Shown in pieces: positions 640 to 59,535 of a stretch of 64,000 bases of DNA (positions are counted from its first letter, which is position 1; each line of letters starts with the position of its first letter). The position numbers and the translations under genes are program-made. A model generated the notes under the pieces. It ran no database searches and was not told the DNA's origin. It was given only the letters and a program-made list of their open reading frames with translations. The stretch is from Pristiophorus japonicus (Eukaryota): NCBI RefSeq assembly GCF_044704955.1, contig NC_091981.1:4402001-4466000 (forward strand), given 5' to 3'.

Positions 640-1890
640 CATGGCCCCTCGAGCCTGCTCCGCCATTCAATAAGATCACGGCTGATCTTCGACCTCAACT
701 CCACTTTCCCGCCCGATCCCCATATCCCTCGATTCCCCGAGAGTCCAAAAATCTATCGATCGCAGCCTTGAATATACTCAACGACTCAACATCCACAGCC
801 CTCTGGGGCAGAGAATTCCAAAGATTCACCACCCTCTGAGTGAAGAAATTCCTCCTCATCTCAGTCCTAAATGGCCGACCCCTTATCCTGAGACTGTGAC
901 CCCTGGTTCTAGACTCTCCAGCCCGGGGGAAACATCCTCTCAGCATCTACCCTGTCAATCCCCCTCAGAATCTTGTATGTTTCAGTGAGATCACCTCTCA
1001 TTCTTCTAAACTCCAGAGTGTATCGGCCCAATCTACTCAATCTCTCCTCATAGGACAACCCAGGGATCAGTCTGGTGAATCTTCGTTGCACCACCTCCAA
1101 GGCAAGTATATCCTTCCCCTGATAAGAGAGTCAAGGGTTATGGGGAGCGGGCGGGGAAATGGAGTTGAGGCCAAGATTAGATCAGCCATGATCGTATTGA
1201 ATGGCGGAGCAGGCTCGAGGAGCCGTATGGCCAACTCCTGCTCCGATTTCTTATGTTCTTATGATGAGGATTTGAGTACAGGAGCAAGGATGTCTTACTC
1301 CAGTTATACAGGGCCCTGGTGAGACCACACCTGGAGTATTGTGTGCAGTTTTGGTCTCCTTACCTAAGGAAGGATATACTTGCCACAGAGGGAGTGCAGC
1401 GAAGGTTCACCAGACTGATTCCTGGGATGGGGGGACTGTGGTATGAGGAGAGATTGGGTCGACTGGGCCTGTATTCACTAAAGTTTAGAAGAAGGAGAGG
1501 GGATCTCATTGAAAGGTATAAAATTCTGACGGGGTTGGACAGACTGGATGTGGGGAGGATGTTTCCCCGGGACTGGGAAGTCTAGAACAAGGGGTCACAG
1601 TCTCAGAATACGGGGTAGGAAATTTAGGACCGAGATGAGGAGAAATGTTTTCACTCAGAGGGTGGTGAACCTGTGGAATTCTCTACCACAGAAGGCTGTG
1701 GAGGCCAAGTCACTGAATATATTTAAGAGGGAGACAGATAGATTTCTAGACACAAAAGGCATCAAGGGGTATGGGGAGAAAGCGGGAATATGGTGTTGAG
1801 ATAAAGGATCAGCCATGATCATATTGAATGGCGGTGCAGGCTCGAGGGGCCGAATGGCCTACTACTGCTCCTATTGTCTATGTTTCTATG
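640..1890. mobile_element. Cluster of CR1 LINE 3' fragments (640-1115 minus; ~1116-1890 plus)
   Basis: CR1 ORF2 C-terminal peptides RPHLEYCVQFW, TRGHSLRI, RRNFFTQRVVNLWNSLP; short tandem-repeat tails. Confidence 0.9.
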
Positions 1891-10927: not shown

Positions 10928-13900
10928 ATACCCGCCTCTGAGATACTAACACAGTCTTTTACAAATTGAGACGGTCCGGTGTTTTACGCTCCTGAGTTGA
11001 TCGTCTCAGTTCAACTCCAGCCTTGGGCGAGTGTTCAGAGCCTGTTGTGACTGGTGGCTGGGTGGCTGACCTGGTGGGAGTGGCAATGGCCATGTCAGGG
11101 ATTGAAAGCCCATTTTCATTGAACATGTCAGTGATTGAAAGTCCCGATTCACTGATGACCACTGAGTCCTCTGATGACTGGGGGTAGGTTGGTTGGTCGT
11201 CGATTGTCTCTTCCTCCGACTGTTCCGGTTCGCCTGTGTGCTGCGGTTTTGTCTGATCCATATGTTTCCTGCATGTTTGCCCATTTTTGAGCTGGACAAT
11301 AAATACTCAGTTGCCCTCCTTGGCCATGACAGTACCAGCGATCCACATGGGACCCTGACCATAATTCAGAACATATACAGGATCATTTACAGAAATATCG
11401 CGTGACACAGCTGCGCGATCGTGATACCCTTGCTGACTTTGTCTTCTATATTCAACATGATTATTCAAGTCAGAGTGTACAAGAGATAGCTTGGTCTTAA
11501 GACCTCTCTTCATCATTAGCTTAGCAGGTGAGACCCCAGTAAGCGTGTGTGGTCTTGTCCTGTAACTAAGCAGTATGCATGACAGGTGGGTCTGCAGTGA
11601 CCCTTGGGTTACTTGCTTCATACTCTGCTTTATGATTTGGACAGCATGTTCTGCTTGCCCATTGGATGCAGGTTTGAATGGTGCTGACCTTACATGTTTG
11701 ATACCATTGAGTTTCATGAACTCTTGAAACTCCTGACTGGTGAAGCACGATCTGTTGTCGCTAACAACGATGTCAGGCAGACCATGTGTTGCGAACATGA
11801 CACTGAGATTCTCAATGGTAGCTGTGGATGTGCTGGATGACATGATTATACACTCTATCCACTTCAAATATGCATCCACCTCAACTAAAAACACCTTCCC
11901 CAGGAAGGGACCTGCAAAGTCGATGTGTTTCATGGTTTCAACAGCCACGACCACAGACTCAGCGGCGATTCCGCTGGTGCTTTGCTGAGCTGCAAACTGT
12001 ACACATGATTCTAGCTCAGAGTCAATTCCCAGCCACCATACATGAGACCTGGCGATGGCTTTCATCATTACAATGCCGGAATGTGTGCTATGTAGCTCAC
12101 GTACAAATTTCTCTCTCCCTTTCTTGAGCATAACAACACGATTGTCCCACGGTATACAATCCGACTGAATGTAAGGTTCGGTCTCCTCGCACATTTGCTT
12201 GGGTATGGCAGACCAATCACCTTCGAGGATGCAACTCTTCACCACCGATAAAATCGGGCCCTGGCTGGTCCAGGTCTTAACTTGTTGAGCCGTGACAGGG
12301 ATTCCTTCACTCTCAAAAGCATCCATACCTAACAATAGGTCCGCTGGTTGTGGCGTTTCCACCTCCGGTGTGGGCAATGGCAGACGGCTCAAAGCATCGG
12401 CACAATTCTCGGTGCCAGGTCTATGGCGAATGACATAATCATAAGCGGATAATGTCAGCGCCCACCTCTGGATGCGGGATGAAGCATTGATATTGATACC
12501 TAAGATCATGCGTAACTGACCTGACAGGGGAGTAACTACCATAACCCCAAGGTGGTTCTCCCTGGATCAGGAAGGTATATGCTTGCTTTTTTGGAAACAG
12601 GAGGTGGGTGGGGGGCTTGACCCATCCACCTCCACGGAGGTGTGTGGGGGACCTGACCCATCCACCTCCATGGCACGAACCTGGTATTGCAGTACTTCCA
12701 GGAACGGTGCAGTGGCTCTAGGCCTTTTGGCTAAGAGCATTGGCGCAGAGTGATCCTTGAATGGGCCCAAGGTGACCTCTGGCGTTTGTGATTTGACAAA
12801 GAATTGGAACGATTGGCTACGAATTTCAAAAAAAAAAAAAATTAGCTTGTTGGAGTATGCAACCAATTCCATATGATGAAACATCACAGGCCAATACTAA
12901 ACGTTTACATGGGTCATAATGTACCAGCAGTTTGTTAGAGCAAAGTAGATTAGTGGCTTTCTGAAAAGCTTTGTCTTGAGACGCACCCCTCACCCAGTTG
13001 TTGCCTTTTCTTAGCAGCATATGCAGTGGTTTTAATAAGGTGCTCAATTTAGGTAGGAAGTTACCAGGAACGAACGCAGCTCCGTTACATTCTGCGGCTT
13101 GGGTGCATTCTTCATGGCCTTGGTTTTCACGTCCGTGGACCTGATGCCGTCAGCAGCAATTTTCCTCCCCAGGAATTCGACCTCTGGTGCCATGAAGACG
13201 CACTTCGAGCGTTTCAGTCTGAGTCCCACTTTGTCCAGACGATGTAGAACCTCTTCCAGGTTGTTCAGATGTTTCTCGGAGTCACAACCTGTGATCAGGA
13301 TGTCATCTTGGAACACGACGATTCTGGGAACAGACTTCAGTAGACTCTCCATGTTCCTCTGAAATATTGCTGCAGCCAAGCGAAAAGGGCACCTGTGATA
13401 AATGAACAGTCATAATGCATGTAAGTCTCTTCGACGTCTCCTGTGTCATGTAGGCCGACGTCAAGTCCAGTTTGGTGAACGATTTCCTCCCGGCTAGCAT
13501 TGCAAACAAGTCATCAGCCTTCGGTAATGGGTACTGATTCTGTTTCAAAACCCTGTTGATCGTAGCCTTGTAGTCTCCACAGATTCTGACTGTGCCATCA
13601 CTTTTCAGCACAGGAACAATGGGGTTGGCCCATTCATTAAATTCAACCGGTGATATGCTCCCTTCACGCTGGAGTCTGTCCAGTTCCATTTCGACCTTCT
13701 CCCTCATCAGATACGGAACTGCCCGAGCTTTATGATGGACGGGTCTCGCATCTGAGTCCACGTGGATCTGCACCTTGGCTCCTGTGAAGTTGCCGATGCC
13801 TGGTTCGAACAGCGAGGGGAACTTGCTCAGTACTTGGGCACATGTATCTTTCTCCAACGACAATGCCTTGATGTCGTTCCAGTCACATCTGATTTTTTCA

Positions 13901-14458
13901 AGCCAGTTCCTGCCGAACAGCATTGGGCCATTGCCTGGGACAATCCATAGCGGTAACTCATGAACCGCACCGTCATACGACACTTTCATTGTGGCACTGC
14001 CAATCACCGTTATGAGTTCTTTGGTGTACGTGTGCAACTTGGCATTGACTGGACTCAGCCTGGGCCTCACAGCCTTAGTATCCCACAGCTTGTCGAATAC
14101 CCTCTGGCTCATTATCGATTGACTCGCCCCCGTGTCCAGTTCCATCGATACCGGCACCCCATTAAATTTCACGTTGATCTTTATCTTAGTTGGGAACGAG
14201 TCCAATCCATACACTTCCACCTCTGGTATCTCGGATTGCGTATCCGGATCCACGCTAGTCTGACCATCATCCTCCACGTGGTGTGTCGCAGCACGCTTGC
14301 TCATCTGCGGACACTTGCGCTGGAGATGCCCCACTCTCAGACAGCCTTTGCAACTATATTGCTTAAATCAGCACTGCTGGTGCCGGTGATTTCCCCCACA
14401 ACGCTAACACGGAGAAGTTGGATGCATTCCGTTGGCGGACTTTGGGCAGCCACAAGTG
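10928..14458 (-). mobile_element. Decayed Gypsy (Metaviridae) LTR retrotransposon gag-pol, 5' truncated
   Basis: Order is CCHC knuckles (CKGCLRVGHLQRKC), protease (MELDTGAS), RT (VRICGDYK, VVFQDDILI), RNase H (LACDVSSYGIG), integrase (HIDFAGPF, VVSDN, SNGQAE); stops and frameshifts present. Confidence 0.92.
12500..12840 (+). mobile_element. Polyadenylated U2/U1 snRNA mosaic retroposon (SINEU-like) inserted in the Gypsy RNase H
   Basis: 12679-12711 matches the U2 3' stem-loop IV region at 32/33; 12721-12736 ggccttttggctaaga = U2 nt 11-26; 12515-12565 resembles the U1 5' end; poly(A) at 12828-12840. Confidence 0.8.
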
Positions 14459-14774: not shown

Positions 14775-16070
14775 GAGTCAGCCTCTGAGTCCGAAGGTCG
14801 TGGGTTCAAGTCCCACTCCAGGCTACAAAATCTAGGCTGACGCTCCCACTGCAGTACTGAGGGAGTGCCGCACTGTCGGAGGGGCAGTACTGAGGGAGTG
14901 CCGCACTGTCGGAGGGGCAGTACTGAGGGAGTGCCGCACTGTCAGAGGGGCAGTACTGAGGGAGTGCCGCACTGTCGGAGGGGCAGTACTGGGGGAGTGC
15001 CGGGCTGTCGGAGGGGCAGTACTGAGGGGGTGCCGCACTGTCGGAGGGGCAGTACTGAGGGAGTGCCGCGCTGTCGGAGGGGCAGTACTGAGGGAGCGCC
15101 GCACTGTCGGAGGGGTGGTACTGAGGGAGCGCCGCACTGTCGGAGGGGCAGAACTGATGGAGTGCTGCACTGTCAGAGGGGCAGTACTGAGGGAGTGCTG
15201 CACTGTTGGAGGGGCAGAACTGATGGAGTGCTGCACTGTCGGAGGGGAAGTACTGAGGGAGTGCTGCACTGTCGAAGGGGCAGAGCTGATGGAGTGCTGC
15301 ACTGTCGGAGGGGAAGTACTGAGGGAGTGCTGCACTGTCGGAGGGGCAGTACTGAGGGAGTGCTGCACTGTCGGAGGGGAAGTACTGAGGGAGTGCCGCA
15401 CTGTCGGAGGGGCAGTACTGAGGGAGAGCTGCACTGTCGGAGGGGCAGTACTGAGGGAGTGCTGCACTGTCGGAGGGGCAGTACTGAGGGAGTGCTGCAC
15501 TGTCGGAGGGGAAGTACTGAGGGAGTGCTGCACTGTCGGAGGGGCAGTACTGAGGGAGAGCTGCACTGTCGGAGGGGCAGTACTGAGGGAGTGCTGCACT
15601 GTCGGAGGGGCAGTGCTGAGGGAGTGCTGCACTGTCGGAGGGGCAGTACTGAGGGAGTGCTGCACTGTCGGAGGGGCAGTGCTGAGGGAGTGCTGCACTG
15701 TCGGAGGGGCAGTACTGAGGGAGTGCTGCACTGTCGGAGGGGCAGTGCTGAGGGAGTGCTGCACTGTTGGAAGGGCAGTACTGAGGGAGCGCTGCACTGT
15801 CAGAGGTGCCGTCTTTCAGATGAGATGTTAAACCGAGGCCCCGTCTGCTCTGTCAGGTGGATATCAAAGATCCCATGGCACGATTTCAGAGAAGCGCAGG
15901 GGAATTATCCCGGGATCCTGGCCAATAATTATCCCTCAACCATGCCTTAAAAAGAAATGAACTGGTCATTATCAGATTGCTATTTGTGCGCAAATTGGCT
16001 GTTGTGTTTCCTGCTTTACAATAGGGACTACACTCCAAAAAGCACTTCATTGGCTGTAAAGCGCTTTAAA
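14775..16070 (+). mobile_element. tRNA-headed DeuSINE/SacSINE1-like SINE with an internal 33-bp tandem expansion (~29 units, ~14850-15805)
   Basis: B box gggttcaagtccc; unit gcagtactgagggagtgctgcactgtcggaggg; family body and L2-like tail follow the array. Confidence 0.8.
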
Positions 16071-23322: not shown

Positions 23323-24870
23323 ATAAGAAACAGGAGTCGGCCATTCGGCCCCTCGAGCCTGCTCCGCCATTCAATATAACCATGGCTGATCCGATCATGG
23401 GCTCAGCTCCACTCCCCGCCCGCTCCCCTTATCCCCTTATAGTTTAAGAAACTGTCTATTTCTGTCTTAAATATATTCAATGTCCCAGCTTCCACAGCTC
23501 TCTGTGAGTTCCACAGATTTACAACCCTCTCAGAGAAGAAATTTCTCCTCATCTCAGTTTTAAATGGGCGGCCCCTTATTCTAAGACCATGCCCCCTAGT
23601 TCTAGTCTCCCCCATCAGTGGAAACATCCTCTCTGCATCCACCTTGTCAAGCCCCCTCATAATCTTACACGTTTCGATAAGATCACCTCTCATTCTTCTG
23701 AACTCCAATGAGTAGAGGCTCAACCTTTCCTTATGTCAACAACCCTCATCCCCAGAATCAACCTGGTGAACCTTCTCTGAACAACCTCCAAAGCAAATAT
23801 ATCCTTCCTTAAATACGGAGACCAAAACTGCACGCAGTACTCCAGGTGTGGCCTCACCAATATCCTGTACAGTTGTAGCAGGACTTCTCTGCTTTTATAC
23901 TCTATCCCCTTTACAATAAAGGCCAACATTCCAATTGCCTTCCTGATCACTTGCTGTACCTGCATATAACTTTTTGTGTTTTATGTACAATGACCCCCAG
24001 GTCCCTCTGTACTGCAAGTCATTAATCTAGATTGTAAATAGTTGAGGCCCCAGCACTGATCCCTGCGGCACCCCACTAATCACTGTTTGCCAACTGGAAA
24101 ATGACCCTTTTATCCTGACTTTCTGTTAGTTAGCCAATCCTCTATCCATGCTAATATATTACTCCCAACCCCGTGAACTTTTATCTTGTGCAGTAACTTT
24201 TTATGTGGCACCTTATCAAATGCCTTCTGGAAATCCAAATACACCACATCCACTGGTTCCCCTTTATCCACCCTGTTCGTTACATCCTCAAAGAACTCCA
24301 GCAAATTTGTCAAACATGATTTCCCTTTCATAAAATCATGCTGACTCTGCTTGATTGAATTATTCTTTTCCAAATGTCCTGCTACTGCTTCCTTAATAAT
24401 GGACTCCAGCATTTTCCCAACGACAGATGTTAGGCTAACTGGTCTATAGTTTCCTGCTTTTTGTCTGCCTCCTTTTTTAAATAGGGGCATTACATTTGCG
24501 GTTTTCCAATCTGCTGGGACCTCTCCAGAATCCAAGGAATTTTGGTACATTACAGCCAATGCATCCACTATCCCTGCAGCCACTTCTTTTAAGACCCAAT
24601 GATGTAAGCCATCAGATCCGGGGGACTTGTCTGCCTTTAGTCCCATTATTTTACCGAGTACTACTACTTTAGCGGTAGTGATTGTATTAAAGTTCCTCCT
24701 TCCCTATAGCCCTTTGATTATCCACTATTGGGATGTTTTTAGTGTCTTCGACTGTGAAGACCAGTACAAAATATTTATTCAACGTCTCTGCCATTTCCCT
24801 GTTCCCCATTATTAATTCCCCAGTCTCATCCTTTAGGGGACCAACATTTACTTTACCCACTCTTTTTCAA
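23323..24870 (-). mobile_element. CR1 with partial RT domain
   Basis: [38 protein letters not shown]. Confidence 0.92.
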
Positions 24871-24929: not shown

Positions 24930-25442
24930 CTTTACAGCCAATGAAATACTTTTTGGAGTGTCGTCACTGTTGTATTGTGGAAAATGTGGCAGCCAATTTG
25001 TACACAGCAAGCTCCCACAAACAGCAATGTGATAATGTCCAGATAATCTGTTTTTAGTGATGTTGGTTGAGGAACAAATATTGACCCCAGAATACTGGAG
25101 AGAACTCCCCTGCTCTTCGAAATAGTGCCATGGGATCTTTTACATCCACCTGAGAGAGCAGACAGGGCCTCGGTTTAACATCTCATCAGAAAGACGGCAC
25201 CTCCGACAGTGGACGCTCTTCAGTACTGTCCCTCCGACAGTGCAGCACTCCCTCGGTACTGTCCCTCTGACAGTGCGGCGCTCCCTCAGTACTGCTCCTC
25301 CGACAGTGCGACGCTTCCTCAGTACTGCCCCTCCGACAGTGCTGCGCTCCCTCAGTACTGCCCCTCTGACAGTGCAGCGCTCCCTCAGTACTGCCCTTCC
25401 GACAGTGCAGCGCTCCCTCAGTACTGCCCCTCCGACAGTGCT
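24930..25442 (-). mobile_element. DeuSINE-like SINE with ~7 units of the 33-bp repeat
   Basis: Reverse complement of the 14775 family. Confidence 0.75.
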
Positions 25443-33469: not shown

Positions 33470-34065
33470 TAAAGCAAGACTTGCATTTCTATAGTGACTT
33501 CCACCACCTAAAATCGTCCCAAAGCGCTTTACAGCCAATGAAGTACTTTTTGGAGTGTAGTCATTGTTGTATTGTGGGAAACGCAGCAGCCAATTTGTGC
33601 ACAGCAAGCTCCCACACACAGCAATGTGATAATGACCAGATAAGCTGTTTTAGTGATGTTGCTTGAGGGATAAATATTGGCCCCAGGACACCTGGGAGAA
33701 CTCTTCTTCGAAATATTGCCATGGGATCTTTTACGTCACCCGAGAGAGCAGACGTGGCCTCAGTTTAACTGCTCATCCGAAAGCCTGCCCCTCCGACAGT
33801 GCGGCGCTCCCTCAGCACCGCCCCTCCTACAGTGCGGCGCTCCCTCAGCACCGCCCCTCCGACAGTGCGGCGCTCCCTCAGTACTGCCCCTCCGACATTG
33901 CAGTGCTCCTTCAGTACTGCCCTCTGACAGTGCAGCACTCCCTCAGCACTGCACTGGGAATGTCAGCCTAGATTTTTGTGCTCAAGTCTCTGGAGTGGGA
34001 TTTGAATCCACAACCTTCTGACTCAGAGGCGAGGGTGCTGCCCTCTGAGCTATGGCTGAGACACA
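33470..34065 (-). mobile_element. Near full-length DeuSINE-like SINE
   Basis: tRNA-like head (~34000-34065), ~5 units of the 33-bp repeat, family body, L2-like tail. Confidence 0.78.
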
Positions 34066-58929: not shown

Positions 58930-59535
58930 GTGTCAGCTGTGGATCAGTGGGCAGCACCCTCGCCTCGGAGTCAGAAGGTTGTGGGTTCGAGTCCCACTCG
59001 AGACTTGAGCACAAAAATCTCGGCTGACACTCAGCGAGTGCTGCACTGTCGGAGGGGCAGTACTGAGGGAGTGCCGCACTGAGGGAGCGCCGCACTGTCG
59101 GAGGGGCAGTACTGAGGGAGCGCCGCACTGTCGGAGGGGCAGTACTGAGGGAGTGCCGCACTGTCGGAGGGGCAGTGCTGAGGGAGTGCCGCACTGTCGG
59201 AGGGTCAGTACTGAGGGAGTGTTGCACTGTTTGAGGGTGCTGCCTTTCGGATGAGACGTTAAATCGAAACCCTGTCTGCTCTCAGGTGGATGTAAAAGAT
59301 CTCATGACACTATTTCAAAGAGTTCTCCCCGATGTTCTGGGGCCAATATTTATCCCTCAATCAACATCACTAAAACAGATTATCTGGTCATTATCACATT
59401 GCTGTGTGTGGGAGCTTGCTGTGCACAAGTTGGCTGCTGTGTTTCCCACATTACAACAGTGACTGCACTTTAAAAAAAAAAAGTTAACTTGTTGGTTGTA
59501 AAGCGCTTTGGGACATCCTAAGGTCATGAAAGAAG
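58930..59535 (+). mobile_element. Full-length DeuSINE-like SINE with ~6 units of the 33-bp repeat
   Basis: A-box-like head, B box gggttcgagtccc, family body, L2-like tail. Confidence 0.8.

Follow-up and report, generated by a model that had tools for sequence, protein, structure and literature searches.

A short polyadenylated element made of U2 and U1 snRNA pieces lies inside a retrotransposon of Pristiophorus japonicus, within the 64,000-nt stretch of DNA that we analysed and refer to as the window. Its mixed make-up raises the question of whether it is a one-off snRNA chimera or a copy of a SINE and, in the latter case, how such an element is transcribed and moved. The reading that we find likely as a whole is that of a young, truncated copy of a SINE which shares its U2 base with a Keno-type LINE, is moved by that LINE, and is transcribed by RNA polymerase II from sources inside U2 genes.

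Make-up and family of the window copy

We matched the pieces of the element against the U2 and U1 genes of the same genome (L031 and L044, respectively), not against human genes. The following features were obtained.

12500..12841, + strand: U2/U1-derived SINE copy, 5'-truncated by 20 nt
12500..12514, + strand: remainder of the U2 head, U2 21-35 (13/15)
12515..12566, + strand: U1 3-52, 5' arm and stem-loop I (79%, E 1.5e-8)
12565..12576, + strand: second short U1 piece, U1 28-39 (11/12; by itself below significance)
12587..12636, + strand: U run from the U2 Sm site (12587-12592), then a stem-loop III-derived, predicted 13-bp hairpin
12588..12636, + strand: U2 100-147 segment (76%, E 2.7e-5)
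12600..12670, + strand: tandem duplication, 36 nt, of the hairpin derived from stem-loop III (2 copies, 91%)
12679..12712, + strand: U2 153-186, stem-loop IV (32/34, E 8e-12)
12717..12739, + strand: second U2 5' piece, U2 7-29, the head of an older 3' module (21/23, E 7.7e-6)
12740..12827, + strand: tail with a predicted hairpin, matching neither U1, U2 nor the Keno-type LINE
12828..12841, + strand: poly(A), 14 nt
11307..12497, - strand: host Gypsy-type LTR retrotransposon, RNase H end and integrase, on the 5' side of the SINE
12844..14367, - strand: the same host type, protease, reverse transcriptase (RT) and RNase H start, in pieces, on the 3' side of the SINE

In each of three regions, covering the U1 segment, the 3' portion of U2 and the second U2 head, the real sequence outscored 1000 of 1000 shuffles. 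The tail gave no such signal against U1 and U2, where 561 and 981 of 1000 shuffles score equally well, and it has no Rfam match; AATAAA does not occur within the element. The first-pass annotation had named the same parts, namely U2 21-35 at 12500-12514 (13/15 there as well), the U1 5' end and stem-loop I at 12515-12565, the U2 Sm site and stem-loop III at 12587-12635 with the stem-loop duplicated at 12636-12671, U2 stem-loop IV at 12679-12711, a second U2 5' piece at 12721-12736, and a tail of ~90 nt before poly(A). Computation recovers every one of them within the limits listed above, the second U2 piece being widened. Rfam likewise picks up both expected snRNA traces, U2 at 23.5 bits (E 0.007) and U1 at 14.4 bits (E 0.17), although both stay below their gathering scores; these scores are weak because the element is a mosaic. 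A Prion_pknot hit at 12622-12673 (31 bits, below the cut-off) was rejected as a chance match on the G-rich duplication. The element folds with a z-score of -5.3, a value inflated by inherited and duplicated hairpins.

Compared with a full-length natural copy (L006), the window copy shows 3 differences in 329 columns. The full-length family begins at U2 nt 1, and the window copy is thus 5'-truncated by 20 nt. The family head consists of U2 1-35 (33/35 in the full-length copy) with two fixed changes, followed by U1 3-52; the head of the modern family no longer contains nt 37/38, the Keno target site. In the U1 piece, the stem is predicted to be kept and the loop is altered, while the second short U1 piece is longer in older subfamilies.

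The pol region into which the SINE inserted is of Gypsy type and comprises protease, RT, RNase H and integrase. On uninterrupted relatives of this Gypsy element, the two flanks map ~200 nt apart, with the RNase H region affected, indicating that the insertion likely went with a deletion. The 5' junction lies ~45 nt from a SINE/Keno hot spot of the same Gypsy family. We take this copy to be a probable dead end, inserted into the Gypsy element with a loss of ~200 nt.

When the genome (5.9 Gb) was searched with the window SINE, at least 39 other full-length places were found at 99% (40 scored of 1,903 candidates), and a search with the tail alone gave 100% for all 40 scored candidates. Exact-motif counts, which are lower bounds and for which reversed controls gave 0, reach 4,019 for the modern group, 619 for the window tail loop and 261 for the sister subfamily A. 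Full-length elements measure 349 nt plus poly(A), and U2 nt 1, where they start, is the commonest 5' end of near-full copies (19/83). Exact target-site duplications (TSDs) of at least 8 nt flank 51 of 82 copies not selected by target, a feature that the first-pass annotation had named as support for a SINE, although none was found at the window copy. Tandem trains are frequent, with a neighbouring copy beside 19 of 84. In one copy (L023), 15 nt of U1 have been newly added at the 5' end, showing that 5' addition by template jump occurs, and no non-snRNA 5' extension is shared among the full-length copies compared. The element at 12500-12841 is, with hardly any room for doubt, a copy of a real, young, multi-copy snRNA-derived SINE family. 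The earlier view of it as an evolved SINE rather than a simple snRNA pseudogene is therefore upheld by a family sharing junctions, poly(A) and TSDs, and the locus is not single-copy.

Older forms of the SINE were found within the tandem trains. In the simplest of them, a near-whole U2, scoring 130.6 bits with Rfam U2, precedes the second U2 head and a short tail, and one variant of this ancestral structure retains U2 7-35 at 29/29. In later forms, U2 ~36-99 is replaced by U1 3-52 and the U1 piece is then partly duplicated, stem-loop III is remodelled and duplicated, and the tail is lengthened. From structure rather than dating, using a subfamily alignment in which eight of ten rows are valid, L095 and L091 being left out as wrong-strand rows, we infer an order that leads from the near-whole U2 form through U1 replacement to hairpin duplication. 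Copies of ancestral structure are up to 98% alike, indicating that this form was active not long ago. Thus, the permuted, multi-donor structure described at first is correct as to the mosaic and its own tail, but the parts form a traceable series and not a free permutation. Such an in-genome series from the shark's own U2 favours an origin separate from that of the crocodilian SINEU. Across subfamilies, the predicted stem-loop III and tail hairpins vary in their loops and hardly in their stems, which suggests selection on shape.

These kept stems, the U2 and U1 traces seen by Rfam and the fold z-score would also fit two other readings, one being a set of processed pseudogenes or chimeric snRNA retrocopies that arose independently, the other a variant snRNA domesticated for some host function. 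We regard both as highly improbable. Hundreds of copies share every junction together with private changes, and alterations affect the U1 loop as well as the regions that pair with the branch site and the 5' splice site; a mobile RNA, too, would be expected to keep its stems, and the z-score is raised by the inherited and duplicated hairpins.

Target sites shared with a Keno-type LINE

U2 genes of this genome are interrupted at nt 37/38 by two kinds of insert, a Keno-type LINE and the SINE. The LINE is present inside U2 arrays as a full-length 5.74-kb element with an open ORF1 (569 aa, zinc knuckle) and an open ORF2 (1,145 aa; APE endonuclease, RT and zf-RVT). Its head is U2 1-44, altered at two positions next to the site, and it ends with AATAAA and poly(A). 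Its protein relatives are Tx1-type elements of vertebrates and other animals, for example a zebrafish protein named TX1 149 kDa (48%). Its U2 junction falls at nt 38/39, which the available part of PMC4640811 describes as common to Keno and Utopia, and we therefore call it Keno-type, a label that rests on structure, site and Tx1-type relatives, there being no named Keno sequence among the protein matches. Its 3' end has 460 matches in the genome, and most of the first 30 lie outside U2; its specificity is relaxed.

The SINE and the LINE share the U2 head only. The first-pass annotation had suggested looking for the tail at 12740-12827 in LINEs; it is absent from the Keno-type LINE, the sole LINE family compared, against which it scores no better than shuffles. 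A SIDE-type non-autonomous LINE was rejected as an identity for the SINE on the same tail comparison, a U2 head alone being common.

Insertion sites link the two elements more closely. Among 62 junctions of ten As with U2 nt 38, 43 belong to modern SINEs, 3 to ancestral SINEs and 14 to Keno, and the 2 others are diverged Keno-like copies. The SINE group thus accounts for 46 of the 62; true U2 genes hold 23 of these, and the other 23 lie inside ancestral-type SINE copies, where the U2 site is retained. Four modern SINE junctions carry the window tail, all of them in ancestral-type SINE copies. The connection to the Keno site in U2 drawn in the first-pass annotation holds to the base, SINE and LINE both joining U2 nt 38. 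The second recurring SINE target found is a Gypsy RNase H site, where we counted 86 poly(A) junctions against 0 in the control. Twenty-eight of the 30 junctions examined there belong to the SINE group, and the site holds 7 of the 82 target-unselected SINE copies. At C4:75.02 Mb, a near-full-length Keno, 99.4% like an array Keno copy, occupies the same Gypsy base as the SINE. The use of the same U2 base and the same Gypsy base by both elements makes the Keno-type LINE the likely mover.

Target sequences were also compared with background. The signature RRY|A, which the U2 insertion site itself fits, occurs at 22 of 40 independent SINE sites against 18% in the flanks (P 2e-7). TT|A, the L1-type target signature, is not enriched (3/40 against 8%). 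Flanks on the 3' side resemble U2 38-44 slightly more often than expected at a match of at least 5/6 (4/75 against 1%), and not significantly at 4/6 (9/75). In a blind test for shared sites, 1 of 27 dispersed Keno junctions lay no more than 5 nt from a SINE junction (84 compared), no enrichment over ten controls with 0-1 of 27.

We conclude from these sites that the SINE is very probably moved by the Keno-type LINE. Its endonuclease and RT would nick RRY|A sites and copy SINE RNA from the poly(A), and such priming would make a tail shared between SINE and LINE unnecessary. The ancestral form, having kept the U2 target site, would still receive newer copies, and modern heads, having lost or altered it, would be protected from insertion. 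Another poly(A) LINE, either L1 or a different Tx1 family, might instead be the main mover, with the Keno overlap being secondary. The unmatched tail, the lack of enrichment in the blind test, SINE TSDs that begin with A as for L1, and a comparison that covered the Keno-type family alone among the genome's LINEs all speak for this alternative. It is nevertheless improbable in view of 46 SINE junctions exactly at the Keno base of U2, the presence of Keno at the same Gypsy base, and a signature that is RRY|A and not TT|A.

SINE copies behind the U2 promoter

Three runs of 4-6 T in the full-length copy (15-18, 108-113 and 247-250) argue against polymerase III transcription, the SINE has no Rfam match to a tRNA, 7SL or 5S head, and the window contains no tRNA. 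We surveyed five assembled stretches of the main U2 array (C19, C1003, C1832, C1868 and C4309), the last four being small contigs and possibly redundant pieces; array counts are those of the assembly, not of reads, and may include assembly artefacts. They contain 267 promoter-led U2 units, of which 237 are intact, 17 have a subfamily-A SINE at +1, 13 have Keno and none has a window-type SINE; parasites occupy ~11% (30/267) of these assembled units. A SINE unit consists of the promoter, the SINE from +1, 21-111 As, U2 38-191 and the normal 3' flank, and the 150 nt upstream are 100% identical to those of intact units. A variant U2 array on C9 also has a subfamily-A copy (L140) downstream of its promoter. 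Promoters of snRNA genes are external (PMC4494074, available part), and the array SINE units thus have a promoter that dispersed copies lack.

Dispersed copies are closely tied to these units. Among 30 sampled dispersed copies with a subfamily-A tail, 23 are at least 98.5% like an array copy. The alleles of subfamily A are nested, running from a base allele to one with one inserted A and on to a private allele with two more changes. This private allele occurs 18 times, in 16 array units and in two dispersed copies that match perfectly (L194, with a duplication, and L232), and the intermediate allele, the base with one inserted A, occurs in 2 array units and in dispersed L192 (100%). A single source lineage mutating inside the array would most simply account for this nesting, although the pattern would be no different if a dispersed source had inserted twice. 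Most dispersed subfamily-A copies carry the base allele, 1-3 changes away from promoter-led array copies, and no promoter-led copy of the base allele was found on the main array.

The window subfamily has no promoter-led copy although it is young and numbers 619 copies. A window-type head gave 0 matches after the main U2 promoter with 1 mismatch allowed, and the window-type tail is found at none of the 23 SINE junctions within true U2 genes. Array collapse in assemblies, together with turnover, may explain this absence, which we take as an assumption.

Judged from these sequences, source copies of subfamily A probably lie behind the U2 promoter, and for the window's own subfamily we lean slightly towards the same arrangement. 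LINE machinery that targets U2 genes would keep placing SINE copies behind the promoter, and turnover of the U2 array would then amplify or lose them. RNA polymerase II would transcribe such sources from the host U2 promoter into capped RNA starting at U2 +1, and this RNA would seed dispersed, promoterless daughters such as the window copy.

The direction could also be reversed, since an array copy could derive from a dispersed one, with the U2 target contributing its first ~28 nt, and a SINE start at +1 is also expected from a template jump to U2 RNA. Array copies would then be passengers, and dispersed sources, mobilised by Keno, would be transcribed by read-through from flanking genes or repeats, as Kojima proposed for SINEU (PMC4494074, available part), and the U2 head would be inherited or acquired anew through a template jump. 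The missing window-type copy behind a U2 promoter is in keeping with this, as are the many SINE copies in repeats and tandem trains (19/84) and the 5' addition seen in L023 with its 15-nt U1 piece. We consider it unlikely, as the full-length copies compared share no non-snRNA 5' extension, unlike SINEU-2 as described in the available part of PMC4494074, and the nested array alleles each recur in dispersed copies. Transcription from within U2 genes remains our preferred reading.

Relation to SINEU and other retroposons

Likeness to SINEU was judged on class features and published descriptions, not on consensus sequences. Of these features, the family has a U1/U2 head, a length below 500 bp, poly(A), TSDs or target truncation, multiple copies with shared junctions, internal oligo-T, targets shared with a Tx1-type LINE, and no LINE-derived tail found (one LINE compared). 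According to the available part of PMC4494074, crocodilian SINEU-1, -2 and -3 are likewise short poly(A) retroposons with U1/U2 heads, showing recurrent 5' addition, partial duplication, a tail of untraced source, T runs inside the element, copies arranged in tandem about a TSD, and targets shared with a Tx1 group that clusters with Keno. There, SINEU-2 consists of U1 plus 3' U2, and SINEU-3 of the U2 5' 32 nt, 83 nt of U2 and a tail. Set against the same account, the shark family differs in that its partner LINE is itself U2-targeting and intact, that the SINE inserts in U2 genes at nt 37/38 behind the U2 promoter, that the secondary target found is the Gypsy RNase H site, the published one being Mariner-N4_AMi, and that the genome, at 5.9 Gb, far exceeds crocodilian sizes (~2-3 Gb).

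The available text of PMC4494074 places SINEU in crocodilians only and calls its transcription "an open question", and the parts available of PMC5381603 and PMC5786205, including a 2018 paper, again describe SINEU as crocodilian or its transcription as undemonstrated. In the literature covered, with subscription papers, Repbase Reports and Dfam beyond its scope, we found no report of SINEU outside crocodilians or of a SINE inside U2 genes.

Other systems share single traits with the family. Like Keno of the Tx1 clade, as known through the available parts of PMC4494074 and PMC4640811, the partner encodes RT together with an APE endonuclease and has its U2 junction at nt 38/39, whereas the SINE itself has no Keno sequence. 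R2 and the R2/R1 SIDEs offer a parallel for a non-autonomous element residing in a multicopy RNA gene where a site-specific LINE has its target, and R2 SIDEs come from a host co-transcript, as we propose for the SINE (PMC3414825, available part). However, SIDEs are described there as internally deleted LINEs with a ribozyme, whereas the SINE is made of host snRNA pieces; it also spreads, unlike SIDEs, to thousands of dispersed sites. If SINE RNA begins at +1, cleavage would not be needed, unlike in SIDEs. With tRNA-, 7SL- and 5S-derived SINEs, snRNA processed pseudogenes and U6-L1-type chimeras, the family shares non-coding, poly(A)-ended, TSD-flanked and 5'-truncated copies. It differs from the first three in lacking a polymerase III head, and from one-off snRNA chimeras in being a self-similar family with subfamilies.

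On balance, and by a narrow margin of belief, we favour an independently evolved, promoterless snRNA-derived SINE in a closed loop, in which the LINE would keep inserting the SINE into U2 genes, the U2 promoter would transcribe it from +1 as a snRNP-like RNA, array turnover would amplify sources and loss of the target site from its head would protect the SINE. The same loop would explain the crocodilian SINEU, both its ~32-37-nt U2 heads and its transcription. If so, the family would represent a second origin of snRNA-headed SINEs and a polymerase II route to SINE status. This genome holds candidate sources behind the U2 promoter, an adjoining intact partner LINE, linking private alleles and older forms, which makes the question of SINEU transcription directly testable.

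The same proposal extends to the 5' ends of truncated copies. Among 128 copies not selected by length, 85 begin within nt 1-20, and of the 40 that begin after nt 30, 25 begin at nt 113-127, an interval set post hoc. This peak, present in several subfamilies, follows directly on the Sm-derived U run and coincides with the base of the predicted 13-bp hairpin on its 5' side. It could be caused by a bound Sm ring blocking RT or by fold-back of the new cDNA; under the closed-loop proposal, a protein ring bound to the RNA would have left this mark during reverse transcription. The usual Sm motif contains an A in the U run, which is missing from the window-type run and is present in subfamily A.

Keno-type and SINE copies in the U2 arrays

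The main U2 array of the shark's own genome contains, in one block (G000:C19:69,617,000-69,721,000), 17 full-length copies of the Keno-type LINE, which like the SINE joins U2 at nt 37/38. These copies are 98-100% alike (sequence stretches L116, L117, L120, L269-L275), several are arranged head to tail inside one U2 gene, and the ORFs are open in those that were translated. The Keno-type head corresponds to U2 1-44, altered at nt 34 and nt 39 (L115:960-1005, minus strand), and the nt-39 change is common to one SINE subfamily. By eye, an octamer-like motif lies at about +57, after this U2 head (L115).

A second, variant U2 array is located at G000:C9:110.99-111.32 Mb and 113.42-113.83 Mb and on C1033 (L109-L114, L138-L144), with a spacing of 18-43 kb. 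Its U2 is 96% identical to the main U2, and the upstream flank differs. Besides ancestral SINEs, the same U2 insertion site holds 3' fragments of Keno here, as well as Keno-like copies that have diverged.

5' ends and remodelling of SINE copies

Besides nt 1-2, the 5' ends of near-full SINE copies cluster at U2 nt 10-14 (29 of 83). If the template was a U2-like RNA, its stem-loop I or its modified bases could have stopped reverse transcriptase at this cluster. Insertions at nt 37/38 of ancestral SINE copies have generated new chimeras (L146, L167, L156, L127) whose build resembles that of crocodilian SINEU-3: U2 1-48 or 1-53 fused to a SINE that is either complete or truncated, and repeated U2 12-52 pieces. 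One full-length copy of the window's subfamily bears a 15-nt U1 piece (U1 22-36) on its 5' end (L023 near 1860-1875, minus strand), likely a fresh template jump. In another SINE copy, the stem-loop III hairpin loop is inverted (L063:1362-1411).

Insertion sites outside U2 and other repeats of the window

Two Gypsy hot spots lie close together at G000:C4:75,020,000-75,036,000 (L280, L281). One holds two Keno copies and one SINE. In the other, eight SINE copies belonging to several subfamilies form a train, with duplicated target between them. Other common repeats also contain recurrent insertion sites (L011/L012; L054/L180/L221; L004/L224). By eye, some of these are common to SINE and Keno; a blind test of dispersed junctions showed no enrichment of such shared sites. 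The window itself contains arrays of a 33-nt tandem repeat, which we take to be common in shark genomes, and a separate reverse-transcriptase fragment:

14851-15806, 33-nt tandem repeat array
25200-25441, 33-nt tandem repeat array
33787-33949, 33-nt tandem repeat array
59078-59237, 33-nt tandem repeat array
24110-24703, minus strand, reverse-transcriptase fragment (Pfam RVT_1)
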